Shown: in pieces, positions 5,716 to 58,366 of the stretch | How the letters are laid out: each line of letters starts with the position of its first letter | How positions within the stretch are numbered: position 1 is the first letter of the stretch | Source of the DNA: Promethearchaeota archaeon | Lineage (GTDB): Archaea; Asgardarchaeota; Lokiarchaeia; Sigyniarchaeales; SOKP01 | DNA length: 64,000 bases | Direction: 5' to 3' | Assembly (NCBI GenBank): GCA_030599585.1 | Contig: JAUVNS010000002.1 | Location: 1 to 64,000, forward strand | The notes under the pieces: model-generated | Databases searched by the model: none | What the model saw: the letters and a program-made list of their open reading frames with translations, nothing else | What the model was told of the DNA's origin: nothing | Made by a program: the position numbers and the translations under genes

Positions 5716-5741
5716 TGTTGCTAATTTATTAATAAGTTAAT

Positions 5742-6869: not shown

Positions 6870-6882
6870 TGAGTGTGATAAT

Positions 6883-13720: not shown

Positions 13721-13722
13721 CA

Positions 13723-17118: not shown

Positions 17119-17136
17119 AAATAAAGGAAATAAAAA

Positions 17137-32616: not shown

Positions 32617-32651
32617 AACTAAAACTATTTTTTAATAAAATGTTAAAATAT

Positions 32652-35483
32652 TTAATTGCTTTTAATTGTCAAAATTAATTTGGATATATTATTATTTGAT
32701 TCTTCAAGTAATTTAAAAATCTCTTCTCTTTCAAAAGTGGATAACTCAGTTCTTTTAAATTTTGATCTTAACAAATTTATGCGATCTCGTATTAATTTTG
32801 AATGTTCTAAGCAAGATCTTCTCTCTTCTGATATTTTGATTTTCTTAACTAATCCAGTAAATAATATTTGAATTCGCTTTTTATCCTCAATTTCTTGATT
32901 TAGAATTTGATCAATTATACTACTTTTTACTGGATCATTAATTATAAATTTAAATTTTTTAATCATATTAGCTTTCAATATCTTTTTTTTAGAGACAAAT
33001 TTTTTGTCAATATTATTCCTTAACCAGAGAAAAGTCATGTTTTTGATTTTCTCTTTCATTAAAATTAATTCTCTACCTCCTTTCCCTGTGTAAACTCCTA
33101 ATTTCGATAATTCAGAGTTTAATACTTCAAAATGTTCGAATATATCAAATTTTTCAATAATATAAAAGTCATTCTCTAAGCCATTTTCTACTAAAAATTC
33201 TTCCATAAGATCATAAAGAAATCTGTATGTCGAAATTTGATTAAAATCAATGTTAAAGATTTCACAAATTTCTTCGTGTTTAATCTCATTATTCACCATA
33301 TTTATTAACAATTTTAGATCTTTTAAATCAAATGGTTTATTCAATTCATACTTCGATTGAATATTAATTTCTGATTTTAATCTACTTAATTCCTTAGTAG
33401 TTAAATCTTTTGGGAACTGAACGATTTTGATAAAATTCTTTGAGTTAAAGGCTGTATCTGTTAATATTGGGCTTAAAATATTAGATAATTTTATTGTTGC
33501 TAACCTTTTATTTCCATCTATAATATTACCATAATAAGAGACAAGTATTGGATCAGTCTGCCCTTTATTTTTATACATTTTAACATATTCATTCGATTTT
33601 TCATCAAAGTTTAAATAATTAAGAATTATTTTTTCAAAAATAGGATAATTTTCGATATTATCTTTAGAAATATGAATTCCAATCCTCCTTTCAAATTGAT
33701 TAATAATGTGTAAAAAATAGTCGCTATCAATATCTAATTTTAAGTATTTAGCTTCAATTTGTTGAATTGGGAAACTATAATGTTTAAAATTCCACAGATT
33801 GATTTTATCGATTGAATCTTCAACATCAGTTATTATTATCTCTAAGTTTTCCTCGCGGAATTGAAATTTTTTATAATTAATGAGAATTTCATATAATTCT
33901 TTCGAATTGACATGAAGTTCTCTAAAAGATTCTTGAACTTTTTCATTCTCCATAATATTTTTCAAGATACTTTTAGCTAAGGATATTTTTTCATTTTCAA
34001 TTAGGTATTTTGATTTTAATATTTGGGAAAATATCATGTGTTCAAGAGGTATATAATCAAATTTATTGTATAGCTGAAATAAATGTTTTAATATTTTTAA
34101 TGCGGATTTGTTATTTCCTTTTGAACTTTTTTCTCTGGCTACAAGATATAATTTGTATCTTTCAAGATTTTTAATTTCTTTGAATTTATGGCTTAATGAT
34201 CTTTTGTTTTGATAGTATAATGCTTTTTCAACCCTTTTTAAAGCATTTGTAAAATCTGATTGTTCAAAAAGCAATCTTGCTTGAACTTCTTCTCTATAAG
34301 CGTTAATAATAAAAAAAATATCTTCTACAAAATTACCTTTTAATAGAGAAGAGATCGATTGGTATTGGTTTCTTAGAAAATTATTACAAATATTAAGACA
34401 ATCTTGATATTCATTTTTATATAATGAATTTTTCACTTTGACATAAATATATTTTAATAATGAACGGTAATATCTTTTTATATACTTTTCCTCTTTGAAA
34501 GAAGTCAGATCTTTATATGATTTAACATAAGAAGCTAACGCGATTTCTTGATCTTCAAATCTTTTCTCTTTTTTATAAAAGTATGCTAGACCTTCATAAT
34601 AATATGCTTCTGATATCTTTTGTTCATATTTTTTGTTTCTTAATTTAAAAAAATATTGAGCAAAATCATAACAAATTAAAGACAATTCTTTATTATCATT
34701 GAAATAGCAAATCTGGCCAATTGTATAGAAATATTTGGAAAAACAGAATTGAATTATTTTATCATCATAGCCCATTGCAATTTTTATTGATCTCATATAA
34801 AGTTCAGATTTTTTTCTTAAACATTCATTATTTTTTTCTGTTAATTTCCTTGCTTCGTCTAGGTAATAATTTAATAGTTTGCGATCTCCTCTATTTTTAA
34901 ATCTATAAAATTTATTATCCTTATATTTTTCTGCTAATGTTGCGATAACTAATATTTCTTCAATATCTTCTGACAATAATGATTCTAAATCATCTTCAAA
35001 ATCCAAGAAATAACTCAATTTTTCAAAATGATAATGAGAAATTATTCCTTTCTTTTTCAAAAGTTTATTATAAATAGCTTTGAATACTTCATATTTAGAA
35101 CATGAGAACCCTAATTGCTCAAAATCAGCTAATACTATTTCTAATTCATTTTTTGTTCTAATAACAAAGCCACTTTTACCTAAACCGAGTATCATGTTTG
35201 CAAACATTCTTTTATAAGTAATTTTCAATGCTTCTTTATTTCCGGGGAACAGCTTAAAAAAAGTTTTAAGTGCATTAATAGAATCTATATATAACGCGCT
35301 ATGACAATTTTCTGCATTTGTTGTTATTTTTTCAAAAAGGCGCCAACCTAAAGCTTCTTTATCTAAATTACGTTCTCTGATAATTAAGCGAATCGCATTA
35401 TCATTAAATTCTTTATTAGTAATAATTAAATTATATATCTCTTCTATATACTTATCATTAAGGAGTTCTTCTTTTAGATTCAT
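32652..35483 (-). CDS. Helical/TPR-like repeat protein fused to a ParB/Srx-like C-terminal domain
   Basis: Long alpha-helical repeat region, then GQTDPILV...IIDGNKRL. The C-terminal third is visibly homologous to 38624-39883. Confidence 0.7.
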   Translation of the reverse strand: MNLKEELLNDKYIEEIYNLIITNKEFNDNAIRLIIRERNLDKEALGWRLFEKITTNAENCHSALYIDSINALKTFFKLFPGNKEALKITYKRMFANMILGLGKSGFVIRTKNELEIVLADFEQLGFSCSKYEVFKAIYNKLLKKKGIISHYHFEKLSYFLDFEDDLESLLSEDIEEILVIATLAEKYKDNKFYRFKNRGDRKLLNYYLDEARKLTEKNNECLRKKSELYMRSIKIAMGYDDKIIQFCFSKYFYTIGQICYFNDNKELSLICYDFAQYFFKLRNKKYEQKISEAYYYEGLAYFYKKEKRFEDQEIALASYVKSYKDLTSFKEEKYIKRYYRSLLKYIYVKVKNSLYKNEYQDCLNICNNFLRNQYQSISSLLKGNFVEDIFFIINAYREEVQARLLFEQSDFTNALKRVEKALYYQNKRSLSHKFKEIKNLERYKLYLVAREKSSKGNNKSALKILKHLFQLYNKFDYIPLEHMIFSQILKSKYLIENEKISLAKSILKNIMENEKVQESFRELHVNSKELYEILINYKKFQFREENLEIIITDVEDSIDKINLWNFKHYSFPIQQIEAKYLKLDIDSDYFLHIINQFERRIGIHISKDNIENYPIFEKIILNYLNFDEKSNEYVKMYKNKGQTDPILVSYYGNIIDGNKRLATIKLSNILSPILTDTAFNSKNFIKIVQFPKDLTTKELSRLKSEINIQSKYELNKPFDLKDLKLLINMVNNEIKHEEICEIFNIDFNQISTYRFLYDLMEEFLVENGLENDFYIIEKFDIFEHFEVLNSELSKLGVYTGKGGRELILMKEKIKNMTFLWLRNNIDKKFVSKKKILKANMIKKFKFIINDPVKSSIIDQILNQEIEDKKRIQILFTGLVKKIKISEERRSCLEHSKLIRDRINLLRSKFKRTELSTFEREEIFKLLEESNNNISKLILTIKSN

Positions 35484-35570
35484 TTTTTTACACCGATTTT
35501 TTCGTTATTAATACAAATTGGAATTGGAAATCATTTAATTTAGAAATATGGTTTTAAAAATCATATATAA

Positions 35571-36647
35571 CTATTTTAAACCATCATTTTCATAATTATC
35601 ATTTTCTCTTTCAATATCTGAAAATTTCATAGTTTCGTGCCTAAAACTGTCAAATGGAACTTCTACTTCATATAATGTAGGTTTCAAGGGTATTATTCCA
35701 TTTTCAACTAAATAGTGAACATTATTGAATTTCTTAAGAGTATTATTTTTTAAATTGACAAAATATATCCAATAATCTTCATTAAATTTAATAGAAGTTG
35801 AGTACTCATTTCGCGAGAGAAAAAAGCGTGAGTTTAGGCTATTAGTTGTTTTGACTTCTATATATTTACTACTCCCATCTTTATTAACAGATAAAATATC
35901 ATAACCCTTGTCAACATAATCTCTTGCGATTAGTCTAACACGGTTTATTAAATTTGGATCAGGAAATTTATTTACCTCTTGTTTTTCTAATCTAAAAGCT
36001 ATATTCTCTCCTAAAGTCCCGATAATTTTTTGTTTTTTTAAGATTTTTTCTAAATCATCCTCAGTAAATTTTTTTCCCATTAAAATTTTCTTCCAATAGT
36101 CCTCATAATCCAAAATTTCAGGGTGAAATTCAACCAGGTTTTCTGAAATTTGAAGATTAGCCTCCCAATAGTGATTTAGATTTGTAGATAATTCGAAGAA
36201 ATCATCCTCCATAGAATCAGACAATAAATTCAATGTTTTTAACATCGAAATAAGAACAGCGCAATATTTTGAACTGTGTAATTTATAAATTAAAAATCTG
36301 TCTTCTTTTTTTATTGCATATTTTTGTAAATCTTCAAATATCCAATTATTTAGCATAAACTCTTCAATTAGTTTCATCTGTAAATCTGTTATTTTTATTA
36401 AAGAATCTTGATCTGAATGACTTAAATAGTGTTCTCCAAATTCAGTTAAATGAATGATATTATTCTCATTAGAATAAAAAAAATTTAAGGTTTTTCCTAA
36501 TTTTAAACCTAAATCTGAATCACACGTACTAAGCAAGGGATTTTCCTTAATATATCGATCAAATTCATTATAGGGCATTCCTACCCCGATTGCCCTATAC
36601 TCCAATACTTTTTTTAAGATTAAATTAAATTGCCATAAAAAAGTCAT
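35571..36647 (-). CDS. DUF3883 (NO VEIN C-terminal-like) PD-(D/E)XK nuclease
   Basis: GTLGENIA...GYDILS...YIEVKTT...FFLSRNE...YWIYFV. Confidence 0.8.
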   Translation of the reverse strand: MTFLWQFNLILKKVLEYRAIGVGMPYNEFDRYIKENPLLSTCDSDLGLKLGKTLNFFYSNENNIIHLTEFGEHYLSHSDQDSLIKITDLQMKLIEEFMLNNWIFEDLQKYAIKKEDRFLIYKLHSSKYCAVLISMLKTLNLLSDSMEDDFFELSTNLNHYWEANLQISENLVEFHPEILDYEDYWKKILMGKKFTEDDLEKILKKQKIIGTLGENIAFRLEKQEVNKFPDPNLINRVRLIARDYVDKGYDILSVNKDGSSKYIEVKTTNSLNSRFFLSRNEYSTSIKFNEDYWIYFVNLKNNTLKKFNNVHYLVENGIIPLKPTLYEVEVPFDSFRHETMKFSDIERENDNYENDGLK

Positions 36648-36666
36648 TTAAATTACCCGAAATTAA

Positions 36667-38616
36667 TTAAATATCATCATAAAAAATTTCAAACTCTTCA
36701 GCATCAGGTTCGTTTGAAAAACCAATAAAAGATTCTGTATCATTTAGAATATGAAGCATATCTATTTCTTTTTCAATTAAGCGATTATGGATTTTATGAT
36801 CGATCGTTCCTTGAGGTAGATCGTCAGAAACTGATACTAAATAATAATATGTGATCTGATCATCATCTTCTAAACCAATTCTGTGAATTCTATCTTTTGA
36901 TTGAATAAATTGGCCACAATTATAAGACCTATCAACATAAATTGCATCGTGGCATACTTTATGGAGGGAAATTGATTCTGCGCAAGCTTGCGGATTAGCA
37001 ATTAATATAGAAAACTCATGAGGATCTTTTTTAAACCGGGAAATATAGTCTTCTCGGGATTCTTCGGTATAAATACCATTTCTTAAATCTTTTGCTTTAG
37101 ATTTAGGAGTATCTCCAATGATTAGAAAAACATGATCCTCCCCAAATTCCTCCTTGAAGAACTCATATAAGGTCTCAAGATTAATTATAAACTCGGACCA
37201 AATTAGGATTTTCTTTATATTTTTTTCATTTTTTAATTTTCTTACTAATTCAACTGTTTTTAACAATTTTGGGGAACATTCATAATTTGAATATATCTCC
37301 AAATTATTAATTACTTCCAGAATTTGATTGTCTGCTTCAATATTCTGAGATTGCCCAGCAATTTCATCTTTTAAAGATTCTAAACCATATTCTGTAGATT
37401 TTTCCATTAGTAAATTTAAATTTGAAGAAATTTGTCTTAATCTAACAATTAAACAATTTTTGTAACTATTTATTATCTCAAAATGAACTAAATTTTCAGC
37501 ATATTCGATAATATCCTTCCATCTTTCACTTACTAACTTATACAATGCTAATTGAGATGGAGAAAGGGGCACTTGAATCACCAATTCCTTTGGTTTTGGT
37601 AGATTCATTTGCGTTTTAGAGATTCGAGTAAAAAAAGGGTAAATTTTTTCTTTTATATCTTCTATAACTGAAGGGTTGGAGTTTCTAGTAAGATATTTAA
37701 AATGATTTTTATCACCTAATAATGCTCCAGGATATAAAAATGAGAATTGTGCAAAAAGATCATGAATATTATTTGGGACGGGTGATCCTGTTAAAATAAT
37801 TTTTGCTGAGCTATAAGGAGATAATCTGAGGATCGCAGAGGATCTTTTACCATCAATATTTTTGATATTATGAGATTCATCCAATACCAACACAAAACTA
37901 TATTTACTGAGTAGATCAATCAGATATCTTATATCTCTACGAGCAGTTTCATATGTTGTTAAAAATATATCAGTATCCGAAATAAGTGTCTCATCATTAT
38001 AATATTCTATCCTATCCTTTTTTCTACCATGAATTCTAATTAAGTTTGGAAGAGGCTCTTTAAAACATTCCTTGATTTCTTCTTCCCATGGCATCAATGA
38101 ACTATAAGGTCCAATTACAAGCAATTTATCAACAATCCCCTCATTTTTCAAAAAATCAAATCCTGCTAATACTATTGTTGTCTTTCCACTTCCAGGAACA
38201 CTAAAGTTTGCCACGCATTTTAATTCTATAAAATGATATACCGGCATCCTTTGATAATCAATTAATATTCTTTTAAAAGAAGGAGGGTTTTCTGAAAAGA
38301 TATTATCATGTTCTTTTATAGATTTGCCAACTTCAACTAAATCTATAATATCAACACGAGTTTTCAAATTAGTTAGAAAATTTTCTAAAACTTGTGTCTT
38401 TTTAATTTTATAATCTTTTTGTTGTTTTAAATACTCAAAAGAAAGAAGGGCTAGTTCATGATTTAATTCAAAATTTTCGAAAGTATATTGAGTGTCTTTT
38501 GGATTAGAGACTTTGTACCCATAATTATTCAATTTTACTCTAGTTTTAGCATTTGGTTTTTCTTCAAATCTTAAGATAAGGTTTCTTCTTTCATAATCCG
38601 CTATAATATTGTTCAT
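36667..38616 (-). CDS. SNF2-family helicase
   Basis: NFSVPGSGKT, DESH, LTGSPVPN, AESISLH, QSKDRIHRIG. Confidence 0.85.
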   Translation of the reverse strand: MNNIIADYERRNLILRFEEKPNAKTRVKLNNYGYKVSNPKDTQYTFENFELNHELALLSFEYLKQQKDYKIKKTQVLENFLTNLKTRVDIIDLVEVGKSIKEHDNIFSENPPSFKRILIDYQRMPVYHFIELKCVANFSVPGSGKTTIVLAGFDFLKNEGIVDKLLVIGPYSSLMPWEEEIKECFKEPLPNLIRIHGRKKDRIEYYNDETLISDTDIFLTTYETARRDIRYLIDLLSKYSFVLVLDESHNIKNIDGKRSSAILRLSPYSSAKIILTGSPVPNNIHDLFAQFSFLYPGALLGDKNHFKYLTRNSNPSVIEDIKEKIYPFFTRISKTQMNLPKPKELVIQVPLSPSQLALYKLVSERWKDIIEYAENLVHFEIINSYKNCLIVRLRQISSNLNLLMEKSTEYGLESLKDEIAGQSQNIEADNQILEVINNLEIYSNYECSPKLLKTVELVRKLKNEKNIKKILIWSEFIINLETLYEFFKEEFGEDHVFLIIGDTPKSKAKDLRNGIYTEESREDYISRFKKDPHEFSILIANPQACAESISLHKVCHDAIYVDRSYNCGQFIQSKDRIHRIGLEDDDQITYYYLVSVSDDLPQGTIDHKIHNRLIEKEIDMLHILNDTESFIGFSNEPDAEEFEIFYDDI

Positions 38617-38623
38617 TGTTTAA

Positions 38624-39883
38624 TTAGTCCTCATCATCCTCTTTTAATAAGAAAATAATATCATTTATCTTCTCTTGATTTTGCTCCATTATTCCCAACA
38701 ACCTTTCTTCATCGATTTCAGTTTCTCCTTCATCTATAACATTTTGGATTCCATCTAATTTATCAGAAATCTGTTCAGCAAGAGTATAGATTTTTTCTTC
38801 CTTCTCACCTTCACGTATAGAATTAATTGCTGCTGTCATCAATTTATGGACTTCTCTCTTTCCTGAGACATTTTCATCCAGAGAGAGCACTTTTTCCACA
38901 GTATTTCTTAAGTCATTTCTATGTACAACTGAATTCAATTTTCTGATAACTTCTCTACTTTTCATTACCTTTTTTTCGGCAATCATTTCTGGATCTATGT
39001 TATTTTTTAACCATTTAAAAGCTAATTCTTGCATTAAGTCTAGTTCACGATCTAATTCAACTCCCTGTAAACCTGTATATCGAGCATGGCCTCTATTTAA
39101 CTTTCGCAGCTCTCTAAAATGATCAAAAAGATTTCTTTTATCGATTATTGTATACTTCTTCTCTATATCATTATCTTCCAAATAAAGTTCAATTAAATTC
39201 AAGACTTCTTCAAATTCTTCAACATCAGCATCAAATAGGTTGAACATTTTTGCTATCTCAGTTTTACTATAATTAAATGATTTTAATTTTCTTACAGCAA
39301 GAGCCTGATTTATTAAGGTATAATTTACTCTTTCATCTATAAATAATTGATTAAAAGTCTGAATTGCAAGCAACTGGCTTTTGGATAATCCTGAATCTAA
39401 CCTTACTACATCCATATGTTTATATTTATCATAGTTTCCTTCAGTTTTTACTTTTTCTTCCTGATACAATTGCCTTATAACCATATATCTTCTATTGCCG
39501 TCCAGTATTATCCCACCGTTAGTGATAATACCTGGGACTTCTTGTTGAGTATTAGAAATACTTTTCTTCAATTTTGATGTTTTTGTTTTATCAGATCCAC
39601 GCTGAAGTGTATCTTCAAATATTCCTGCATAAATCTCGCGATCTGACAAATTTTCAAAGTCCAATTCACTTCCTAATTTATTTAGTTCTTCTATTAACTG
39701 ACCCTCAATTCTCATATTATCAAAATTATATGTTAAAAATTCAATTGGAACTTTAACTACTTTTAAATCTTTCATAGTACCATCGAACCATCTTATCCGA
39801 TGTGTTCTTTCTGTAATTGCTATAACTCCATTAATTTCAATAAAATTATTTATTCTTAACGAATTCTCCTCTTCAAAAACCAT
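38624..39883 (-). CDS. ParB/Srx-like domain protein
   Basis: YNFDNMRI...QQEVPGIIT..GIILDGNRRY, followed by an HTH-like segment (SKTEIAKMF). Confidence 0.75.
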   Translation of the reverse strand: MVFEEENSLRINNFIEINGVIAITERTHRIRWFDGTMKDLKVVKVPIEFLTYNFDNMRIEGQLIEELNKLGSELDFENLSDREIYAGIFEDTLQRGSDKTKTSKLKKSISNTQQEVPGIITNGGIILDGNRRYMVIRQLYQEEKVKTEGNYDKYKHMDVVRLDSGLSKSQLLAIQTFNQLFIDERVNYTLINQALAVRKLKSFNYSKTEIAKMFNLFDADVEEFEEVLNLIELYLEDNDIEKKYTIIDKRNLFDHFRELRKLNRGHARYTGLQGVELDRELDLMQELAFKWLKNNIDPEMIAEKKVMKSREVIRKLNSVVHRNDLRNTVEKVLSLDENVSGKREVHKLMTAAINSIREGEKEEKIYTLAEQISDKLDGIQNVIDEGETEIDEERLLGIMEQNQEKINDIIFLLKEDDED

Positions 39884-40119: not shown

Positions 40120-40239
40120 TCATTTTTTTTTTAAAGCAGCCCTTTGAGCTCTCGATTTAAAACCCTGGTTTTTTCCGCTCTTATCTGCATGAGATTGTAT
40201 CCTACGAGCTGCTTTTGAACTCATCTTACTTTTTCCCAT
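40120..40239 (-). CDS. Small basic 39-aa protein, SMP/LEA-like 'RIQS...GF..RAQ.AA' family (absent from ORF track)
   Basis: Translates MGKSKMSSKAARRIQSHADKSGKNQGFKSRAQRAALKKK*. Perfect RBS GGAGGTGA at 40252-40245. Confidence 0.8.
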   Translation of the reverse strand: MGKSKMSSKAARRIQSHADKSGKNQGFKSRAQRAALKKK

Positions 40240-40381
40240 ACTTTTCACCTCCTTTTGGATTACTGTTTTTTCTCATATTAAAATTAAAATCATTATTATA
40301 TTTAAATATTATTGTTTTTTTCTAATAATATTGAGAAAAAGTAATATTTATTAATACGGACTGATAATATTAATTAAAAGA

Positions 40382-41065
40382 ATGAGATTAAGTGATCCTA
40401 TGAAAATCCAAATCGCTTCATTTGCGTTAGTGCCTGACCATATTTTTATAGCTGAAAGATATTTTCATACTGAGAAAATAATTCTGATCTTAAGCGAAGA
40501 GAATAAGGAAAAACAAGCCAATAACAATGAGGAAATTAGCTCTAAAATTAATGAGGTGATTGGATTCTATGAAAAATTAAATGTTCCCGTAGAAAAAATA
40601 TATGTGAATTATAAGAACTTTATGGAAATGACTTTGAAATTAGCCAGATTACTTAAAATGTTTTCTCCTGATGACCAAATTTTGTTGAATCTTAGCGGTG
40701 GTCGTAGGTCAATCCCGATTTCTTTAATATATGCGGGAACCTTTATTAGTAATTTCAAGGATATTAATATTAAATGTGTAGTTATACCTGAAGACAAGAC
40801 TTATACTCCATTTAACTTGTTACCAAATTATTTACCGGACGAAATCGATATCAATCTAATGTCAAGGTTACCACAGAATTTAACCCTAACTGATTTAGAA
40901 AAGGATTTAGGAATAAAGCAACCTACAATATCAATTAGGTTAAAAAGGCTTGAAAAGTATGGATTCATAACCATGAAGGGAAGAAAAAGAGAATTAACGG
41001 ACTTAGGACTATTAATGGTCGACATTACTAATCTGGAATTCAATAAAGAGGATGAGGTAAACTAG
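40382..41065 (+). CDS. CARF + winged-HTH transcription regulator (Csa3-like)
   Basis: CARF motif LNLSGGRRS; C-terminal LTDLEKDLGIKQPTISIRLKRLEKYGFI...LTDLG. The start is probably the ATG at 40400. Confidence 0.8.
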   Translation: MRLSDPMKIQIASFALVPDHIFIAERYFHTEKIILILSEENKEKQANNNEEISSKINEVIGFYEKLNVPVEKIYVNYKNFMEMTLKLARLLKMFSPDDQILLNLSGGRRSIPISLIYAGTFISNFKDINIKCVVIPEDKTYTPFNLLPNYLPDEIDINLMSRLPQNLTLTDLEKDLGIKQPTISIRLKRLEKYGFITMKGRKRELTDLGLLMVDITNLEFNKEDEVN

Positions 41066-41066
41066 T

Positions 41067-41909
41067 ATGATAACCTGGATAACAACTGTAGGATGGAGTC
41101 CATTTGCGGTTATAAACCCGATATGGGCGTATTGTAAGGAAAATGAGAAAACTCCAGACAAGTTATTTCTTATACACACCGAAAATATGAAGGTATTAAA
41201 AAACGTAGAAACTTGTAAAAAATATCTCAATGAGATTTTACGAGAATATTCCAATAATAATTTTAAAGAAGAAAATTTAATCAGCTACCAGATTGAAAAT
41301 GAGACCTACGAAATATATTCCCTCGCAATGAAAAAAATAATAGACCGGGAGCTTAAGGATGATAAAGCAAAGATAATCTTAGATATGACTCCAGGTAGAA
41401 AATATATGTCAGCAATTAATATGTTTTTCGGTCTAAAAGCATTAAATAATTCAATTCAGGTTCTTTATCTCTATTTAGAAGAAGCTAAATACCAAAAAGT
41501 TCCATATCCATTAACACCAATAATTAAAAATGAACTAGTAGACATCATTGAATCAGCTGAAATATTTTCTAAAGATATTATTATTGATGAGGTGATAGAT
41601 CCAGATGATGAAATTATCAAAAACATTTCTGACATAGATCTTTTGAGAAAGTTTCTGGTTTTAAGGGCTATAGTAAAAGATTTCAATACAATCACGAAGA
41701 TAAAAAAATATTTTTTAGCTAAGAAACAAAGCATTAGAAGCATAGAACTTAGACAAATTCTTAAAGAGTTGCTGGAAGGTAAATATGTAAGTATTACTAA
41801 AGTCCCAAACAAAAAACAAAATTACTTTTTATACAAAAATCTTGAAAAAGCAGATAAATACATAGAAGAAACATTAAATCAGCTTAATATCGGGGAGGAT
41901 GGTGGCTGA
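41067..41909 (+). CDS. CARF-domain protein with C-terminal wHTH-like region
   Basis: N-terminal WITTVGWSP (CARF motif I) and LDMTPGRKYMS (CARF motif II). Confidence 0.8.
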   Translation: MITWITTVGWSPFAVINPIWAYCKENEKTPDKLFLIHTENMKVLKNVETCKKYLNEILREYSNNNFKEENLISYQIENETYEIYSLAMKKIIDRELKDDKAKIILDMTPGRKYMSAINMFFGLKALNNSIQVLYLYLEEAKYQKVPYPLTPIIKNELVDIIESAEIFSKDIIIDEVIDPDDEIIKNISDIDLLRKFLVLRAIVKDFNTITKIKKYFLAKKQSIRSIELRQILKELLEGKYVSITKVPNKKQNYFLYKNLEKADKYIEETLNQLNIGEDGG

Positions 41910-41915
41910 TTAAAT

Positions 41916-43031
41916 TTGATTGATATAAAAACTATTTTAGAAAAATATATTCTATTAGACTCAAACGAATTTGTTATGTTCTTCAATGAACTTTTTTTAG
42001 ACGCTAAACACCACTTAACAATAAAAGATGCGCTCTATGGTTTAGATTTATTTGATATCAAAATTTCGGACCAGATTGAAGTAGAGATACTAATTGATTT
42101 AGATCTGATCAACCAAAACAGAAAAAATATGCCAATTAATACTCAAAATGAGTTTCCAAACAAATCTCGATTTTTTGAGATATTCCTCAAGTCAGGTCTA
42201 TTTTTTAATAAATATTACAGAGGTTCTATTGATCATATTCTACGAGATATGGATCAAGTCAATCCCCTTAATGGAGATCTTCCCATAGCGATATCTTTTG
42301 ATACGAATCTATATTTCAATCATTTTTTTAGTCAGATGTATCCAATGTTACTTGAACGATATGGAGCCCCAAGGTTTCCAATCAAATTTCTCATGTCGGA
42401 AGGCGTTAAAAAAGAACTTACTCGCTATGAAAAGAAGTATAAGCAACATGATATAGATGATTTGAAAAATGTTGTGAAATATCCCTCAATTATACAAGAT
42501 TTCTTTAACCAATCCACATTAACTTCCCGCTTATGGCATTTAGGGCATAGTGACTTTTTAAAATGTATTGATAATGTTAATTATAAACTTGTTGATGAGG
42601 ATACTTCAGTTAACCATAACGATATGGACAATAAAATAATTAATGGGTTATTGAAGGAAATAAAGCAACAAAATATTAAATTGTTTATTTTAAGTCAAGA
42701 TTCTGATTTCATTGCAAGATCAAGAGGAAATAAGAATTTAGTTGCCAAATTTTTGGATAAAATTCCATACTCAAAACTTAAACAACTATACTCAATTAGC
42801 TGGGAGAAATTCGTAAGATTCATTTACACGCTTTCAGTGACTTTTGGAGCAATTATTTTAGAGTTTAAGGAAAAACCAATTATCGTTATACAAGGAATTT
42901 GGCGCGGAAAGAAATTGTTTCATTGGGAAAATGAAACCATGAAGGTTTGTTCTGCCAATAATTTACTTAGTAAGATTGAAAGAGATTTAACCATCTTGAG
43001 AAATATTAAATTAGAGGAGGGGGTAAATTAA
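41916..43031 (+). CDS. PIN-domain ribonuclease
   Basis: ISFDTNLY...GVKKEL...DNKII...ILSQDSDF acidic PIN motifs; TTG start after GGAGG. Confidence 0.7.
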   Translation: MIDIKTILEKYILLDSNEFVMFFNELFLDAKHHLTIKDALYGLDLFDIKISDQIEVEILIDLDLINQNRKNMPINTQNEFPNKSRFFEIFLKSGLFFNKYYRGSIDHILRDMDQVNPLNGDLPIAISFDTNLYFNHFFSQMYPMLLERYGAPRFPIKFLMSEGVKKELTRYEKKYKQHDIDDLKNVVKYPSIIQDFFNQSTLTSRLWHLGHSDFLKCIDNVNYKLVDEDTSVNHNDMDNKIINGLLKEIKQQNIKLFILSQDSDFIARSRGNKNLVAKFLDKIPYSKLKQLYSISWEKFVRFIYTLSVTFGAIILEFKEKPIIVIQGIWRGKKLFHWENETMKVCSANNLLSKIERDLTILRNIKLEEGVN

Positions 43032-43056
43032 TCATGGTAATCTGGAGGTTGATTGC

Positions 43057-45813
43057 GTGAGTAATCTTTACTATGCTAATTTAGATATTCCTAGATATGA
43101 AATTGAAAAAGCTAATGCTTACTACAGGCTCAAAGATTTTATAAATTATTTAAGATTAGCAAAAGAAAATCAAGAGCGTCAAAAACATGCAATTTTTTGG
43201 AAATTCTTGAAACCAGAATCTATAGAGGAAATTATTAAAAAAAGATTTATTTTAAAAACTTCTAGAGAGGAACCTTACGATGAATGGACTTTGAATGAAT
43301 TAGGTGAATACATTGAGAATGATTATGATCTGAATACTAAATTACAATCTGAAATTCAAAAGGAATTTAACCAGATATCAGATGAGGAAAAAATATGGAT
43401 CAAGATTTCTGATAAGAATAGGACAGAGGAAGGATATAAACTAATCCAGAAATTTTTTCAAAATAATTTAATTTATGATTCTCCTGATCTTTTAAAGGAA
43501 AATAGTGTTAGAGTTTTAAGTAAGGATAGAAATTACAATGCATTAATCATTAATCGTAAACCTAAGAGCGAAAAAATTTATGTAAAATATCGAGCTATCC
43601 CCTTAATTCGTCAATTAGATGCACTCCTTAATTTACAGAAAAGACCACTTAAGGCTCATCTGCCTTTATTAAAATTGGTTATGAATAAGTACTTCGCAAG
43701 GTGGGCACCTGTTGATGTAAATACAGCAAACATAATTCAATGGCATCTTCTTAAAGATGATAATCGTAATGGAATAGAGAAACAGAGAGAATTTGTAAAA
43801 ATAGCTCTTAGTACTCCTGATTTTGCAATCTTAGAAGGACCCCCTGGGTCCGGAAAAACCTATACAATCTGTGAGTTAATACTGCAATTAGTAAATCTAA
43901 ATAAGAGAGTTTTGTTATGTGCATCAACGCATGTCGCTGTGGATAATGTCCTTGAGAAAGTTAAAGATAAAAAAGCAGTAATAGCTATAAGAATTGGAAG
44001 AGATAATATATCTGAAAAGGTTAGAGAATGTCAAATAGATGAAATTGAAAAGTATGAGAGTAAAAGGATAAGGAAGAATCTACTGATAAGGAAAAAAAAA
44101 GGAGCCATCACAGATAGTCAAAATTACTTATTAGAATGTTTACAATCAAATAAATCTAATATAATACGAGACACATTTCTTGATGCAGCAAATCTAATTT
44201 GTGGTACGAACATTGGAATTCTTAATCATCCAAAAATAAAACTTAATTTAAAAAATACTGTAGCAAATATCGATTACGACTATTTAATACTAGACGAGGC
44301 TAGTAAGACTACATTTCAAGAGTTCCTAGTCCCAGGGATGCTCGCTAAAAAATGGATCATTGTTGGTGATTTTAAGCAATTATCTCCTTATGTAGACGCT
44401 GAGGATTTGGAAGGTAATTTAATAGGTTTATTGAACCCTAAGGAAGAGATAGTATGTACTGATATTTTCGAAAGCTTCCTTAATTCTTCCAAATCTAAGA
44501 AAAATGTTAATTATTGGATGAACAGTTTAATAATAGAAAACGATGATAAAATAAGAAAATTGTATGAAAAACAAGCTAAAGCACTAGGTTTAGATTACAT
44601 TAGAATTGAAGATGAAAAATATAATAAATTTGAATTGTTAGGCTCTCAAATAATAATTACATCTGAATCATTAGTAAAAACAATAGAACATGATTTACCT
44701 GTTAATATACATCATATACGCGGAGATTTTCAATTAACTAATTTTAAAAGAAGAAGAGAGTTTTGGAAGAAGCATTGCAATCCAAAAATTTATGAAGATG
44801 ATAATGAGAATAATATACTAGAAAAAGAAAAATGGCCTCATCAAGTTGCATGGAGATTAATAAGAGCTAATGAGACGAGAATTACTAAAGAGAATCATGA
44901 ATACTATTTGAATCAATTGAAAGGACTGTATCCTAATTTTCAATTGTTAAATTCATCCAAAGATGAAGATATTGAAATTGAAAAAGATGTTGAAATTGAC
45001 ATTAATGAAAAACTTAAAGAAAAAATTGATTTAATTAGCACTATAGGATTACCATCAATTATTGAATCTCTCCAAAATGGAATAAAATCAAGTGTAAAAA
45101 GTAAATATCCATACATCCTTTCTGAAGGTTTTGATAAAGAAGTTCTTAACACAAGGCATGTATTACTTAACTACCAATATAGAATGCATCCAGAGATCTC
45201 AGAATTCCCCAGAAAATATGTGTACAATAATGATGCTCTCAAAGATTATCCAGGAACGAATAGAGAATGGAATTTTCCAAGATATGAAAATAAACGCATT
45301 GTATGGGTAAATACGTTGGGAAGTAAAGACTCTGAACTGAACATGAACCGTTCAGAAGTAGAGAATATTATTTTTGAACTAAAAGAATTTATGAAATGGT
45401 CGGAAAGAGGGGGAAGATATAAAACATGGGAAGTAGCAATTTTAACTTTCTATCGTGCTCAAGAAAGGCTGATTAGACGAGAATTACAAAAATTTTTCGC
45501 AACAAAAAGTAGAAGGTTTTTCAATTCAACGAAAATGAATGTTGCGGTTGAGTTATGTGTCGTTGATCGGTTCCAAGGACATGAAGCTGATGTTATTTTC
45601 TTATCTTTTGTTCAAACCCAAAAAGAAGGTTTTTTAAATAGTGTGAATAGATTAAATGTTGCCTTGACCAGAGCTAAATATCAATTAGTCATTTTTGGTT
45701 CTCATAAGTTTTTTATAAAAACAAAATCAGAAATTTTAAGAAATCTTGCTGAATTTTGTATGAAGAATATAATTATACCTTTTAGAGGAGGGAAAAAAAT
45801 TGGATACAATTAA
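43057..45813 (+). CDS. SF1B UPF1/DNA2-like helicase (AAA_11/AAA_12)
   Basis: EGPPGSGKT, STHVAVDN, DEAS, GDFKQL, QYRMHPEI, VDRFQGHEAD, RLNVALTRAK. Confidence 0.9.
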   Translation: MSNLYYANLDIPRYEIEKANAYYRLKDFINYLRLAKENQERQKHAIFWKFLKPESIEEIIKKRFILKTSREEPYDEWTLNELGEYIENDYDLNTKLQSEIQKEFNQISDEEKIWIKISDKNRTEEGYKLIQKFFQNNLIYDSPDLLKENSVRVLSKDRNYNALIINRKPKSEKIYVKYRAIPLIRQLDALLNLQKRPLKAHLPLLKLVMNKYFARWAPVDVNTANIIQWHLLKDDNRNGIEKQREFVKIALSTPDFAILEGPPGSGKTYTICELILQLVNLNKRVLLCASTHVAVDNVLEKVKDKKAVIAIRIGRDNISEKVRECQIDEIEKYESKRIRKNLLIRKKKGAITDSQNYLLECLQSNKSNIIRDTFLDAANLICGTNIGILNHPKIKLNLKNTVANIDYDYLILDEASKTTFQEFLVPGMLAKKWIIVGDFKQLSPYVDAEDLEGNLIGLLNPKEEIVCTDIFESFLNSSKSKKNVNYWMNSLIIENDDKIRKLYEKQAKALGLDYIRIEDEKYNKFELLGSQIIITSESLVKTIEHDLPVNIHHIRGDFQLTNFKRRREFWKKHCNPKIYEDDNENNILEKEKWPHQVAWRLIRANETRITKENHEYYLNQLKGLYPNFQLLNSSKDEDIEIEKDVEIDINEKLKEKIDLISTIGLPSIIESLQNGIKSSVKSKYPYILSEGFDKEVLNTRHVLLNYQYRMHPEISEFPRKYVYNNDALKDYPGTNREWNFPRYENKRIVWVNTLGSKDSELNMNRSEVENIIFELKEFMKWSERGGRYKTWEVAILTFYRAQERLIRRELQKFFATKSRRFFNSTKMNVAVELCVVDRFQGHEADVIFLSFVQTQKEGFLNSVNRLNVALTRAKYQLVIFGSHKFFIKTKSEILRNLAEFCMKNIIIPFRGGKKIGYN

Positions 45814-46900
45814 ACTTAAAAGAAAAGTGGAAATTCAAAGATTTAGAGCTATAATTGATTTAGGAAGGCAAAGAGAAAAAGAAGTCTATATAGCAATATT
45901 AAAACTGGCACAAGAAAATGAGGGGATAATTACACCAGAATTAATAATTGAGAGTTTCTTCGAGGGAAGACCCATAGATTTTGCAATTAGAATTATTCAA
46001 AATTGTAAAATAGATGGTTTATTTGATGATTATGGACATATTTCTGAAGAGGGGAAGGTTGCATTAAGTGAAAATAAGATATTTCTAGGAGAGAATGGAG
46101 CTTATGAATTTTGGACTACTTTAGATCCACTAATTCCCCAATTAATCCTTGACATTAAACTAATTGATGTACGCCAAATGAATAAAAAAGCAAATCGTGG
46201 TTCAGTAGAAGTAATTCCAGATTGGATTAAAAATCTGGAAAATCAAAAAATTAACCTCCTTAACAAGAATAAAGATGTTATAAAAATTTATGAGTTTCTC
46301 CCTCAAATTGAAGTATTAAAAAACTATTTAAATGTTACTGTTCACTTTCATATTACTCCATTAGAAGTATCTGAAGAATCCAAGCTAATGGTTGCTGGAG
46401 ATTTAAGGAAAAATCTAACTCAAATTCCAAAATATTCATTTGAAGAAATTTGGTTTTCTCTATTAGGAATTGAGAAAAATAAATGGGATCCAAATAAATC
46501 TGCATTGCTCTACAATTTTGAAGATGTTAAGGACAATAATTCAAGGATGAGTTTTTCTATCGATAAACAATTTCAAAGACCTGATATTTTAGATTTAGGT
46601 AAGTTTGAGGATGTATCTGTCAGGAATATTCCAATAATACCCGTCAACGAGAAAGAAGCAAATATATGGGCAAATTGGATATTAGAACAAGAGATTAATA
46701 ATTATACATATGAGGAATCATATATAGAAATATGCTACGGTATTGCTTCCAAACCTCAGTTTTCAGATTTTCAGATCGCCTTTCCATCACAAATAGAGCT
46801 TGCTGAAAAATTCATTAGGAGAGAAGATAACGGAGAAATAAAATTTTTAGAGAAATTTTGGTATTTACAAACACCAATAGATTTAAGAATTAAAAATTAG
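45800..46900 (+). CDS. Hypothetical protein coupled to helicase and PLD
   Basis: Overlaps the helicase end by 14 bp; possible N-terminal wHTH (ISEEG). Confidence 0.65.
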   Translation: MDTIKLKRKVEIQRFRAIIDLGRQREKEVYIAILKLAQENEGIITPELIIESFFEGRPIDFAIRIIQNCKIDGLFDDYGHISEEGKVALSENKIFLGENGAYEFWTTLDPLIPQLILDIKLIDVRQMNKKANRGSVEVIPDWIKNLENQKINLLNKNKDVIKIYEFLPQIEVLKNYLNVTVHFHITPLEVSEESKLMVAGDLRKNLTQIPKYSFEEIWFSLLGIEKNKWDPNKSALLYNFEDVKDNNSRMSFSIDKQFQRPDILDLGKFEDVSVRNIPIIPVNEKEANIWANWILEQEINNYTYEESYIEICYGIASKPQFSDFQIAFPSQIELAEKFIRREDNGEIKFLEKFWYLQTPIDLRIKN

Positions 46901-46912
46901 AGGGTTTTTAAA

Positions 46913-48493
46913 ATGTTTGAAATAATTCAGAAGCAGAAGGAAATTGATTTAAGAAGAGAAGAAATTCCTCATTGTTGGATTTATAAAGAATCTAATCAAG
47001 ATTTAGCATTAAATAATTATTTTAAGAATACACAATTATCAGATGACATTTGGTTGAGTGGTCAAGATCGGAAATTGCTTATTCAATTAATAAATTCAAT
47101 CAAAAAGGCAAGGAATATCATATGTTTATCAACATTTATTTTTAGTAGTAAAGAAATCAAGGATGAACTTATAGAAGCAAGTAAAAGAGGTGTGAGAGTT
47201 TATATGATTACTGCATCAAATAAACATTTAAAATCCTTACCTGAAGATGATGATAATTTCAACAAGCATATGTACGTGGAAATGAGCGAATTATTTAATG
47301 AGTTACAAGGAATAGTAAAAATAAGAACATCAGAAAACTTTCATACAAAATTCTTATTAATTGATCCAGGAAGAGATGAGATTTCTGAAGGTTATCTACT
47401 TACATCTAATTTTGATACAAAGGGATTGATCGGTAGGGATATTAAAGGGATTTATCATGTTAATCAAGAAATAGGTATTTTTTTAAATAAAAGAGAGGTT
47501 GAGGATCTTTTTAAGCAATTCTGCTTAGGTTTTTGGGAGTTAAGCAAAGAAGAATCCAAAGTTGATGGTTTTTATCCTTTAAATAGCAATATTCAACAGA
47601 ATTTTACCTTTAATAATCTTCTACTCAATTCTCCTAATCATAAGTCTTTAAAGAATGAAATAATTAATATTATTTCAAGTACCAGAGGTAAAATATTTAT
47701 CAGTACTTATGGTATTACGGACGATAATGAGATCTATAATTTAATTTTAAATGAACTTGTTGAGAAAAAAAGAGAAGTGTTCATTTTAACTCGACCCCGA
47801 GTAACTAAAATGGAAAGTTTAATTAAGTTATCACAAAATGGAGCAAAAATTTACGGACACTACGATATTCACGCTAAACTCGTAATTGTTGAAAATATAA
47901 ATAATCCACAAGGCATAGTTATGACAGCTAATATTGATAATATTAGTTTTGAAAATAGTTTTGAAACAGGAAAAATCTTAGATCCAGTTCAAGCAAGAAC
48001 ACTTTTAAATGTAATTTATACTTGGATTAATTATTTCCCATTGGAATTAATGTGTAATATTGAGAGAGGAAAATTGGATAGATATGCTCTAGTTTGGAAT
48101 AGATTAACAAAAACATTGGATCGTAAAAAAGTAATATTTGAAAAGATTGAAGAATTAAAACCAGAGTATGCAAGTTCTATCTTACATTACAGAAATTATG
48201 AAATTTCAAATAAAAAATTAGATTTTGTTGAAAGTAATTCTGAAATCGTTCAAAAAATGGTCTTTAAATACAAAGTAAAACCCCCAATCAAACCAGTTAA
48301 TGCAAAAACATATTTGGAAGAAGCGGACAAAGAAAAATCAAAATCAAAGAAAAATAAGAAAAATTTTCAATTCTTTCTTCTAAACAATCAAAGTTATATT
48401 GTAGTTAAAAATGACGATGAGTTAAAAGAAGCAATAAAAATCACAGAAAAATCAAATGTAAAAATAGTAACTCTCGAGAAATATCTCTTTTAG
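46913..48493 (+). CDS. Phospholipase D-family nuclease with two HKD-type motifs
   Basis: HTKFLLID...TSN and HAKLVIVE...TAN. Confidence 0.85.
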   Translation: MFEIIQKQKEIDLRREEIPHCWIYKESNQDLALNNYFKNTQLSDDIWLSGQDRKLLIQLINSIKKARNIICLSTFIFSSKEIKDELIEASKRGVRVYMITASNKHLKSLPEDDDNFNKHMYVEMSELFNELQGIVKIRTSENFHTKFLLIDPGRDEISEGYLLTSNFDTKGLIGRDIKGIYHVNQEIGIFLNKREVEDLFKQFCLGFWELSKEESKVDGFYPLNSNIQQNFTFNNLLLNSPNHKSLKNEIINIISSTRGKIFISTYGITDDNEIYNLILNELVEKKREVFILTRPRVTKMESLIKLSQNGAKIYGHYDIHAKLVIVENINNPQGIVMTANIDNISFENSFETGKILDPVQARTLLNVIYTWINYFPLELMCNIERGKLDRYALVWNRLTKTLDRKKVIFEKIEELKPEYASSILHYRNYEISNKKLDFVESNSEIVQKMVFKYKVKPPIKPVNAKTYLEEADKEKSKSKKNKKNFQFFLLNNQSYIVVKNDDELKEAIKITEKSNVKIVTLEKYLF

Positions 48494-48545
48494 TATCATG
48501 AGTAGTATTTCCAAAATTATTTTGGTAATTTCTCTTTCACTTAAA

Positions 48546-48842
48546 TTATTCGTTTTCTTTTTTATTGCTGTGCGTTTCTATACTGTAATACCAGTGTTTC
48601 ATATGGTATGGCATGTATATCAGATCACATATCTTAGCAGCAGCGAGAGCTTTTGCAAATCTTTTTTTTGTAGTTTCATTGCCCCTTGCGTAAAACTCAT
48701 TAATTGGAAAAATCTCATTAGCCTTTACCCAAATTTCAAAACAAAAGCTTGAATTGATTGTTGGAACTTCTTTATACTTAATAGACACAATAAGTCTTTT
48801 TTTTTGTAGTTCATCTAAAGTATTTATTGGATTATTTAACCC
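48546..48842 (-). CDS. dsRNA-binding-motif (dsRBD)-like reading frame, probable frameshifted 3' half of 48836-49360
   Basis: The frame is open from 48842: GLNNPINTLDELQKK..IKYKEV..FCFEIWVK..FYARGN.TTKKRFAKALAAAKICDLI, matching the alpha-beta-beta-beta-alpha and KKxAKxxAA pattern. Confidence 0.55.
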   Translation of the reverse strand, partial: GLNNPINTLDELQKKRLIVSIKYKEVPTINSSFCFEIWVKANEIFPINEFYARGNETTKKRFAKALAAAKICDLIYMPYHMKHWYYSIETHSNKKENE

Positions 48843-50000: not shown

Positions 50001-50441
50001 TTAATTTTTAAATCCTTCAGCATCCAATCGGTCATTACACAATTTATCGCATTTTTGGATGTAGGGATTATTCCTTCCCACATGAAAAAACTCCACCTTT
50101 TCGTATTTCTCGCACAGCTTATAGACCTCGCTGCACATTTTCGATAAGTGTGGATAGTTGATTTTCCATTTCTTATTGATTTGCTGGACTGCTAAGTTGC
50201 TATCAGAATACACTTGAATGTGCCCTCGTGAGAATTTTTCAGCAACTTTTAAAGCGTTAATTATAGCTTGATATTCGGCAGTATTGTTTGTCGCAGTTCC
50301 AATAAAAACACACTCATCGCGGATAATTTTATCATTATGAAGGAATAGAAAAGCGCTAGCAGCGGGTCCGGGATTGCCGCGTGAGGCACCATCCACATAA
50401 ATTTTAAGTTTATCTCCTTTTTTAACGGGACTGTTGTTCAT
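50001..50441 (-). CDS. rnhA: Ribonuclease HI family protein
   Basis: YVDGASRGNPGPA, TNNTAEY, YSDSNL, CDKL. Confidence 0.9.
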   Translation of the reverse strand: MNNSPVKKGDKLKIYVDGASRGNPGPAASAFLFLHNDKIIRDECVFIGTATNNTAEYQAIINALKVAEKFSRGHIQVYSDSNLAVQQINKKWKINYPHLSKMCSEVYKLCEKYEKVEFFHVGRNNPYIQKCDKLCNDRLDAEGFKN

Positions 50442-57560: not shown

Positions 57561-57574
57561 TTTTTTTTTTTTTT
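57561..57574 (+). terminator. Poly-T archaeal terminator-like tract
   Basis: T14 run 14 bp after the stop at 57546. Confidence 0.45.
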
Positions 57575-57581
57575 GAAATCA

Positions 57582-57604
57582 AAGTGGACAATAAAGTATA
57601 TTAA
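57582..57604 (+). promoter_or_regulatory. Duplicated BRE/TATA-like promoter AAGTGGACAATAAAGTATATTAA (copy 1)
   Basis: 23/23 identical to 58259-58281; both lie ~85 bp upstream of paralogous genes. Confidence 0.65.
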
Positions 57605-57687
57605 CGCCGATGAAGAAATACATATCACATAATCAGTATTTAGTTTAGAATTTGAGTAAATCAATATAAGAAAACATGAGTTGAGAA

Positions 57688-58239
57688 TTGATGGGAAAAC
57701 GAAAAGTTTCAATATTTAGTATTTTAGCGCTTATTGTAGGGCTTTCTGGGCTTGGACTAGGAGTGTATTCGCTATATAATTACCAACAGCTTGTTAATCA
57801 AGTAGAGCCCCCAAGACCTTTAGCAAGAGCATACCTAAATTTTGGATACATGTTCTCGAGCGGGAGCTATAATCTCGTGAATTTTGATGTTTTAGATTAC
57901 GACGAGACAGGTGACTTTAATTTAATGACAGACAGGTTTATTTGTCCGATTTCGGGATATTACCTCATTTCAGGAATGGTTACATTTGGTGGTATGCAAG
58001 ATGGAGAGGCGATATTTGCGGCAGCGTTTATAGAGGGCGTCTTAAAAGCGTGGATTATAGCACGCGCGGCTCATTCAACCATTTTATCAACGAGTTTTAC
58101 AGATATCGTATATTTAAACGAGGGAGATTATGTTGAGCTGCGGGCGTATCATACTGGGAGTGGTCCAAGAGAGATTTTTGGAGATTCACAAGGCATATAC
58201 ACGTACCTTACGATCGCAGCTACAGATATTCTAAATTAA
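57688..58239 (+). CDS. Membrane-anchored C1q/TNF-like domain protein, copy 1
   Basis: TM helix, then VNFD...GDFN..TDRFICPISGYYLISG...LNEGDYVEL. Confidence 0.75.
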   Translation: MMGKRKVSIFSILALIVGLSGLGLGVYSLYNYQQLVNQVEPPRPLARAYLNFGYMFSSGSYNLVNFDVLDYDETGDFNLMTDRFICPISGYYLISGMVTFGGMQDGEAIFAAAFIEGVLKAWIIARAAHSTILSTSFTDIVYLNEGDYVELRAYHTGSGPREIFGDSQGIYTYLTIAATDILN

Positions 58240-58258
58240 TAATACTTTTTTTTTATTT

Positions 58259-58281
58259 AAGTGGACAATAAAGTATATTAA
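58259..58281 (+). promoter_or_regulatory. Duplicated BRE/TATA-like promoter (copy 2)
   Basis: Identical to 57582-57604. Confidence 0.65.
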
Positions 58282-58366
58282 TCCCGGAGTGGAAATACTT
58301 ACCATATTAATTAGCTTATATTTTAAAATTAAGAAAATCAAATAAGAAAAAGCGAGTTGAGAAAAG

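Follow-up and report, generated by a model that had tools for sequence, protein, structure and literature searches.

Closest described systems

Several described systems resemble in part a six-gene locus found in an Asgard archaeon, on a stretch of 64,000 nucleotides referred to below as the window (Promethearchaeota archaeon, Lokiarchaeia, assembly GCA_030599585.1, contig JAUVNS010000002.1, positions 1 to 64,000 of the forward strand). Mokosh type I is composed of MkoA and MkoB (Millman et al., bioRxiv 10.1101/2022.05.11.491447). The CnuH-CnuE helicase/effector operons were described together with the CoCoNuTs (Bell et al., eLife 2024, PMC11090510). CARF-PIN proteins of the CARF_m1 type, such as Msed_1167 and ST0035, form an accessory family of type III CRISPR systems (PMC6546367), and Csa3, a transcription factor combining a CARF domain with a winged helix-turn-helix (wHTH), binds cA4 (6WXQ; PMC8844856). 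Viperin and Mokosh are among the entries of published Asgard and archaeal defence surveys (PMC11291487, PMC12988326), which do not describe the gene set considered here, and literature searches returned no description of it.

The locus is a conserved and apparently unpublished composite of known kinds of parts and one unnamed adaptor family. With a probability of roughly one half, its six genes form a single CARF-gated, RNA-directed multi-effector antiviral cassette, which would be the viperin-less, co-oriented form of a modular Asgard ensemble.

Organization and conservation of the six genes

Six open reading frames (ORFs) on the + strand occupied positions 40382-48493, with successive gaps of 1, 6, 25, -14 and 12 nt. 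These coordinates agreed with a preliminary description of the same DNA, whose domain assignments (CARF-wHTH, CARF, PIN, superfamily 1B (SF1B) helicase, unknown, double-HKD PLD) were upheld by profile searches. It had also regarded the system as unrecognised, and no single described system was found to cover the six genes, PADLOC detecting only the MkoA-like helicase and the CARF families. The six genes and a small divergent ORF are as follows:

40382..41065, + strand: P0001 (227 aa), Csa3-like CARF and winged-helix transcription regulator
41067..41909, + strand: P0002 (280 aa), CARF_m1 sensor half of a split CARF-PIN, extended C-terminally by ~120 aa
41916..43031, + strand: P0003 (371 aa), PIN-domain RNase, effector half of the split CARF-PIN
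43057..45813, + strand: P0004 (918 aa), UPF1/MkoA-like SF1B helicase
45800..46900, + strand: P0005, called protein X below (366 aa), N-terminal winged helix followed by two domains without known fold match
46913..48493, + strand: P0006 (526 aa), double-HKD PLD-family nuclease
40120..40248, - strand: ORF for a very basic microprotein (39-42 codons) in the divergent intergenic region, preceded by a GGAGG site; possibly an optional accessory

The window represents contig 24 of a 4.85 Mb genome assembly in 52 contigs (G000), which was 100% complete by marker genes with 8.9% contamination and encoded four actin homologues (best 442 bits). Relatives of the locus came from archaeal metagenome-assembled genomes. 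Locus counts given below refer to 25 loci including that of the window, with 20 fetched in one further round, among which gene families were mapped with BLAST and iterated hidden Markov models; genome-wide counts within the phylum refer to 400 genomes from 85 genera.

The identical six-gene order was encountered in six other loci (L002/L003, L004, L007, L009, L044 and L047), so that the arrangement cannot be ascribed to chance. This order was displayed by every contig of the close homologues of X that was long enough to show six genes. Full-length proteins from the six loci were 46-95% identical to those of the window, except for the helicase-X-PLD trio of L047. Scanning for sigma-70 promoters and terminators gave no more matches than did shuffled sequences, the sigma-70 model not being applicable to archaea. 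An 84-aa ORF located after the PLD gene (48498-48752) belonged to no family, was missing from the close relative L010 and was rejected as a part of the cassette. Homologues of the microprotein adjoined CARF-wHTH or viperin genes in L044, L056, L046 and L059 (tblastn), the copy of L059 containing an in-frame stop.

CARF regulator, CARF sensor and PIN RNase

P0001 matched the CARF1 and CARF3 models of PADLOC down to 2.6e-21 (CARF1) and Csa3 at 5e-18, together with Pfam families Csa3_N and HTH_5/MarR. Its only solved sequence relatives were Csa3 proteins (2WTE, 6WXQ and 6W11; E ~0.003), the matches spanning both the CARF and the wHTH domains.

P0002 matched positions 1-147 of the fused PADLOC model PDLC01973 (CARF_m1--CARF_PIN) at 1.9e-27, its scores on PDLC01973 and PDLC01972 being 1e-26 to 1e-27, and P0003 matched positions 186-455 of the same CARF_PIN model at 3.1e-22 (PADLOC). 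Together these two proteins make up a split CARF-PIN. The preliminary description had listed CARF and PIN as separate genes; they are indeed two ORFs, with 6 nt and a stop codon in between, and remained separate in all 12 loci, but they constitute the halves of one known type III accessory family (CARF_m1 CARF-PIN).

Residue G9 and the D106-x-T-P-G-R-K112 loop of P0002 were kept in at least 85% of 12 homologues, and no sequence relative of this protein was found in the PDB. The acidic tetrad of P0003 (D129 in a DTN motif, E167, D238 and D262) was invariant across 12 homologues, of which the one in L053 passed Pfam PIN_4. Pfam held no family for residues 150-280 of P0002 or residues 1-125 and 280-371 of P0003.

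Helicase and PLD nuclease

P0004 displayed AAA_11 (9e-32) and AAA_12 (4e-38) domains and matched the PADLOC MkoA model PDLC03920 at 2e-81 over model positions 459-1085. Its best relatives in the PDB were UPF1 (6e-29), then Nam7, IGHMBP2, Sen1 and DNA2. The Walker A motif GPPGSGKT, the DEAS motif and motif VI were conserved over 28 homologues. No kinase family was detected in P0004, searched whole or as residues 1-240, and the first 458 positions of the MkoA model remained unmatched; residues 1-240 matched no Pfam family.

P0006 matched PLDc_2 (1e-18) in two stretches with HxK motifs, the PADLOC DrmC model at 5e-12 and MkoB at 0.006. Residues H144, K146, D151 and N166 of the first stretch and H320, K322 and N340 of the second were invariant in 22 homologues.

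Protein X and its predicted complex with the PLD nuclease

Close homologues of X were limited to 10 among 5.8 billion proteins, and a profile search added 637 more distant clusters of ~370-400 aa. None of the 86 members scanned matched a Pfam or PADLOC family. Residues 25-93 corresponded to a MarR-like winged helix (Z 8-8.8). The remainder (residues 95-366), modelled from 86 sequences with a pLDDT (predicted local distance difference test) score of 94.6, had no match in the PDB (Foldseek best E 0.67; exhaustive VIA alignment best Z 4.0), and the nearest predicted structures were bacterial hypothetical proteins (template modelling scores, TM, of 0.82 and 0.78). An early whole-protein model built from 10 sequences had a pLDDT of 61 and winged-helix matches only, and an ESM-atlas feature search with the C-terminal part of X returned nothing. 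X represents a family of ~640 clusters that possesses a confident model and lacks both a family name and a structural relative in the PDB.

Complex prediction for X and PLD gave an interface score (ipSAE) of 0.77, against 0.00 for the best control. Of 80 solved complexes, 58 attained the 0.77 mark, as did two of 110 mismatched pairs, these calibration counts being only approximate here because the alignments were own-supplied. At least 79% of the contacts were common to the prediction runs, with a partner pLDDT of at least 83. On the X side, the modelled interface consisted of the C-terminal tail (residues 339-364), which includes an invariant W354 and a nearly invariant D361; on the PLD side it consisted of residues 68-97, 133-136 and 201-208, among which W208 is invariant and Y97 and F203 nearly so. 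The model supports, without proving it, a binding of X to PLD through this conserved tail, and X is predicted to be an adaptor coupling the PLD nuclease to the helicase.

Distribution and neighbourhoods of the helicase-X-PLD trio

X was present in 29 of 400 genomes of the phylum, distributed among 24 of 85 genera, and in only one other of the 41 genomes of the window's own genus. Such patchiness is typical of defence genes. In 22 of the 25 loci, helicase, X and PLD were tightly packed and followed one another in this order; the exceptions were L051 and L052, which are cut by contig ends or contain a fragmentary helicase, and L059, where the X ORF was not called. X and PLD also adjoined each other in the distant members of the X family and on the bacterial plasmid that were examined.

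At least one CARF gene was found beside the trio in 21 of the 25 loci, and usually encoded a full Csa3-like CARF-wHTH protein (that of L053, for instance, matched CARF3 at 1e-51). The CARF_m1 and PIN pair occurred in 12 of the 25 loci, CARF always lying directly upstream of PIN. This pair was upstream and co-oriented in seven loci including the window, divergent in L048, L053 and L059, downstream in L056 and convergent in L050. Trio and CARF genes were associated in no fewer than five of the phylum's families, with varied orders and orientations. The CARF/PIN and helicase/X/PLD halves were thus repeatedly found together in other loci, in different arrangements, so that the refuting condition named in the preliminary description, halves that never co-occur elsewhere, did not hold.

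Prokaryotic viperin (PADLOC pVip, 1e-78 to 1e-83) was located directly upstream of the helicase or nearby in 11 of the 25 loci, and was sometimes accompanied by a kinase or NYN RNase. Matches to the pVip model in the window genome were generic radical-SAM enzymes, ~25% identical to the viperins of the relatives, and were not retained. The window carries the viperin-less variant, as its genome contains no true viperin.

The locus of G242 (L047), from the same genus, was instructive in that its three CARF-side proteins were 68, 51 and 47% identical to those of the window, against 38, 27 and 30% for helicase, X and PLD. This contrast indicates that the two halves were recombined between lineages and that their association was re-formed and not merely inherited. 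Additional genes were observed around the trio in several relatives:

L047, 12199-13299: RNase III-like protein after PLD in G242
L060, 14259-14750: NYN/Zc3h12a-like RNase before viperin in G011
L012, 2619-4178: Metallophos and RNase_H_2 protein after PLD
L061, 5665-12925: enlarged variant trio in G135, with a 1276-aa helicase and a 762-aa PLD having a weak PLDc_2 match

The trio was not restricted to archaea. On the Vibrio rumoiensis plasmid NZ_AP018688.1 (L086, positions 512-7340), an operon annotated as helicase, hypothetical, PLD-like and sigma-54 regulator encoded helicase, X, PLD and a sigma-54 activator, and the same four-gene order was present in one metagenomic contig. The bacterial activator was a CARF-AAA-HTH protein of type RtcR_PspF1 (PADLOC, 6e-207). 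As the trio stands beside CARF regulators in both Archaea and Bacteria, CARF control of the trio is conserved across domains by means of two different CARF architectures.

Signal source and links to type III CRISPR

Genome-wide searches of the window genome detected no Cas10 palm, RAMP, Cas1, SMODS/CD-NTase, mCpol or class III cyclase, within the limits of a draft assembly. A weak Csm1 match on contig C40 was confined to an HD-domain stretch and was not accepted as Cas10. A k-mer scan of the same genome for CRISPR arrays retrieved only coding repeats of leucine-rich repeat and beta-helix proteins.

The relatives gave a different picture. Cas10 was found in 13 of the 29 X-bearing genomes, compared with 58 of the 371 others (odds ratio 4.4, computed over relatives that are not independent). 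A complete cmr1-6 operon continues directly into the helicase gene in L050 (G312), where cmr6 overlaps the helicase start and the CARF and PIN genes are convergent downstream; the Cas10 of this operon possesses, besides Cmr2_N and palm2 domains, GGDD at residue 394. L002 (GCA_019058395.1) has a csm operon (Cas6, RAMPs, Csm4, Csm2 and Cas10) 2 kb downstream and a divergent viperin upstream, and in L082 cas6 precedes the regulator gene. Linkage to an apparently cyclase-active Cas10 was found in L050 and L002 and not in the window genome. Given these cmr and csm neighbours, the module is at least sometimes ancillary to type III CRISPR, whereas other genomes carry it as an orphan. The absence of a cyclase stated in the preliminary description consequently held for the whole assembly of the window, now searched, but not for relatives whose trio is fused to cmr1-6 with a GGDD Cas10 or lies near csm.

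That description had also suggested that the PIN or PLD nucleases themselves might produce the CARF ligand. This proposal found no support and was rejected on chemical grounds only: cleavage by PIN and PLD nucleases leaves 3'-OH/5'-P ends and not cyclic phosphates.

Interpretation of the cassette

The reading as one CARF-gated cassette draws on the tight spacing and overlap of the genes, the co-occurrence of the modules and their re-formed association in G242, the type III links and the more frequent Cas10 of X-bearing genomes, the CARF activators of the bacterial trios, the modelled X-PLD complex and the intact PIN, HxK, CARF and helicase motifs. The surroundings of the cassette in the window form a dense defence island, a context that supports a function in defence. 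The following account of ligand, RNA target, sequence of events and role in defence is what we infer from these elements. On infection a small nucleotide would appear as the signal; by comparison with Csa3 and the CARF-PIN relatives, it is most likely a cA4-type cyclic oligoadenylate. The Csa3-like CARF-wHTH protein would bind this signal and switch on transcription of the operon, and the CARF_m1 protein, binding the same signal, would release or activate its partner PIN RNase and may also degrade the signal. The UPF1-like helicase would translocate 5'-3' along invader RNA (or single-stranded DNA, ssDNA). X would tether the double-HKD PLD to the helicase via its C-terminal tail, its winged helix touching the helicase or nucleic acid, and the resulting helicase-adaptor-PLD machine would processively destroy invader RNA, possibly also ssDNA. 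A preference for RNA is suggested by the UPF1-like helicase together with companions such as PIN, NYN, the RNase III-like gene, viperin and the RtcR-like regulators. Where type III CRISPR is present, Cas10 would supply the signal; since no recognisable synthase is encoded here, the cassette of the window would either respond to another ligand or wait until an enzyme or element that is not recognised supplies the signal in trans.

Several observations weigh against this reading. The window genome, although 100% complete, contains no recognised synthase; G186 (97% complete) carries the full six genes and no Cas10; and Cas10 is absent from 16 of the 29 X-bearing genomes. UPF1-like helicases and PLD nucleases act on RNA and DNA alike, and co-transcription of the six genes is presumed from their spacing. 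Moreover, some trios lack PIN and CARF-PIN is known to exist by itself, so that the parts could be separable systems under one regulator.

A more tentative explanation retains the same cassette and replaces its signal: the CARFs would sense not cyclic oligoadenylates made by Cas10 but cyclic-phosphate RNA fragments, in a CRISPR-independent innate RNA surveillance. The lack of a synthase in the window genome, of Cas10 in G186 and of Cas10 in most X-bearing genomes speaks for this proposal. So does the pairing of bacterial trios with RtcR-like CARF-AAA-HTH activators, a class for which sensing of RNA fragments was proposed (PMC7790460), and the same argument was made for the CARFs linked to CoCoNuTs (PMC11090510). 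A HEPN domain (HEPN_Swt1) is also encoded in the same island, HEPN RNases leaving 2',3'-cyclic phosphate ends. Against it, the regulators of the Asgard loci resemble Csa3, which binds cA4 (6WXQ; PMC8844856), the sensor belongs to CARF_m1, and both of these families have ties to type III loci. In L050 the trio forms a fusion with a cmr operon whose Cas10 looks active, and the canonical D-x-T-x-G-x-K CARF loop is retained.

It is possible, though less likely than not, that in Cas10-less Asgard genomes the CARF regulator and CARF-PIN answer a non-CRISPR signal (2',3'-cyclic-phosphate RNA or the product of an unrecognised synthase), and that X is a new-fold adaptor defining a helicase-adaptor-PLD machine common to Archaea and Bacteria. 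If true, eukaryotes' closest relatives among the archaea would possess an inducible pathway of innate RNA surveillance, in which a nucleotide-sensing transcription factor induces a UPF1-like helicase-nuclease and, in sister loci, viperin, in a manner reminiscent of interferon-stimulated gene induction.

It is rather improbable that the island merely gathers two or three uncoupled units, namely a regulator of the Csa3 type, an RNase for abortive infection (CARF-PIN) and a helicase-X-PLD system resembling Mokosh. Trios without PIN made up 13 of the 25 loci and four of the 25 lacked any CARF in the fetched stretch, CARF-PIN is known as a stand-alone type III accessory (PMC6546367), modules of different lineages were recombined, and the window is a dense defence island. 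Gaps of 1-25 nt and one overlap nevertheless argue for coupling, as do the recurrence of the association across five or more families of this phylum with varied orders and orientations, and the presence of CARF regulators beside the trio in Bacteria and Archaea via different architectures.

A housekeeping RNA quality control similar to nonsense-mediated decay (NMD), based on UPF1 and PIN and unrelated to immunity, was rejected on distribution and context: the helicase and PIN share their domain types with UPF1 and SMG6 and the host is an Asgard archaeon with four actin homologues, but the spread is patchy (29 of 400 genomes, one other of 41 in the genus), the genes lie in a defence island and have links to CRISPR, viperin, CARF and a bacterial plasmid, and no UPF2/UPF3-like partners were seen.

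Read as one CARF-gated cassette, this Asgard gene set joins CARF second-messenger sensing, a helicase-nuclease attack of the Mokosh/UPF1 type and, in sister loci, viperin. With complete genomes that lack any known synthase, it also offers a concrete, testable example of 'orphan' CARF signalling, which bears on CARF ligands outside CRISPR.

Other features in the window

The remaining features, mostly located on either side of the cassette, were the following:

835-2400: tandem coding repeats of ~273-276 nt within an open-ended ORF of 860 aa (repeat protein)
7972-10499: AAA_15/AAA_21 ATPase with a DUF3696 tail and a familyless partner of 285 aa; an OLD/Gabija-like or PD-type two-gene unit
10748-26973: DISARM-like block with a 990-aa SNF2 helicase, two Eco57I/MmeI-type N6 methylases and a 1946-aa DEAD and MZB (DUF1998-like) helicase, with a Swt1-like HEPN domain at the end
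30559-39883, - strand: five-gene operon divergent from the cassette, encoding an SNF2 ATPase, a NOV_C (DUF3883) protein and three proteins without Pfam family
50001-50441, - strand: stand-alone RNase H (RVT_3/RNase_H), ~1.5 kb downstream of PLD
57569-58903: tandem duplication of ~676 nt comprising a gene and its upstream region; the two paralogues are 76-77% identical

A repeat of 300 nt, 86% identical, was present at the starts of both methylases of the DISARM-like block. The operon at 30559-39883 is probably another defence system. In L010 an RNase H gene directly follows PLD, indicating a local synteny common to this locus and the window.

Comparison with known systems

Among the described parts, the CARF-PIN family is represented by P0002 and P0003, which together span the fused family model and display conserved CARF loop and PIN tetrad. 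The pair differs from that family in being split into two genes in the window and in all 12 Asgard loci, and no cas10 was found in the window genome. The regulator shares with Csa3 (2WTE, 6WXQ) the same two-domain architecture and a detectable sequence similarity, and its gene heads, or diverges from, the operon that it presumably controls. It differs in not being linked to type I-A CRISPR genes, and its ligand here is putative.

Two eukaryotic pairings offer analogies only. UPF1-SMG6 of NMD combines a UPF1-like helicase with a PIN nuclease, a parallel that the preliminary description had drawn with the same reserve and that keeps this status, and MOV10L1-Zucchini of the PIWI-interacting RNA (piRNA) pathway combines a UPF1-like helicase with a PLD nuclease. 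Both differ from the cassette, whose distribution and context are those of mobile defence, with no evidence of descent from them or of common partners.

Mokosh type I resembles the locus in associating a COG1112/UPF1-like helicase with a PLD-family nuclease, P0004 scoring 2e-81 on MkoA. The preliminary description had taken this pairing as Mokosh; the association of an MkoA-like helicase with PLD stands, but the obligatory X and the missing MkoA kinase domain set the locus apart. The helicase of the window lacks the serine-threonine kinase domain, X is obligatory as a third protein between helicase and PLD (22 of 25 loci), and P0006 matches MkoB only at E 0.006, DrmC models scoring better. For these three reasons the cassette was not assigned to Mokosh type I. 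The ensemble carries in addition CARF regulators, CARF-PIN and, often in relatives, viperin.

In CoCoNuTs of type III-C, a UPF1-like SF1 helicase precedes a gene that couples a winged helix to a nuclease with two PLD domains, and CoCoNuTs share with the locus frequent CARF regulators, including RtcR-like ones, and a predicted RNA target (PMC11090510). No McrB/McrC (CnuB/CnuC) families were found in the flanking genes of the window that were scanned, and the absence of McrBC is why the cassette was not considered as a CoCoNuT. The regulators of the archaeal cassettes are furthermore Csa3-like and not RtcR-like. In contrast to type III-C, the wHTH part (X) and the PLD are here separate proteins, and X contains two extra domains without fold match. 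A helicase gene is followed by the wHTH protein X and then by a separate PLD, and X and PLD are predicted to bind each other. By analogy, the helicase-X-PLD trio would be closer in logic to the CnuH-CnuE operons than to two-gene Mokosh.

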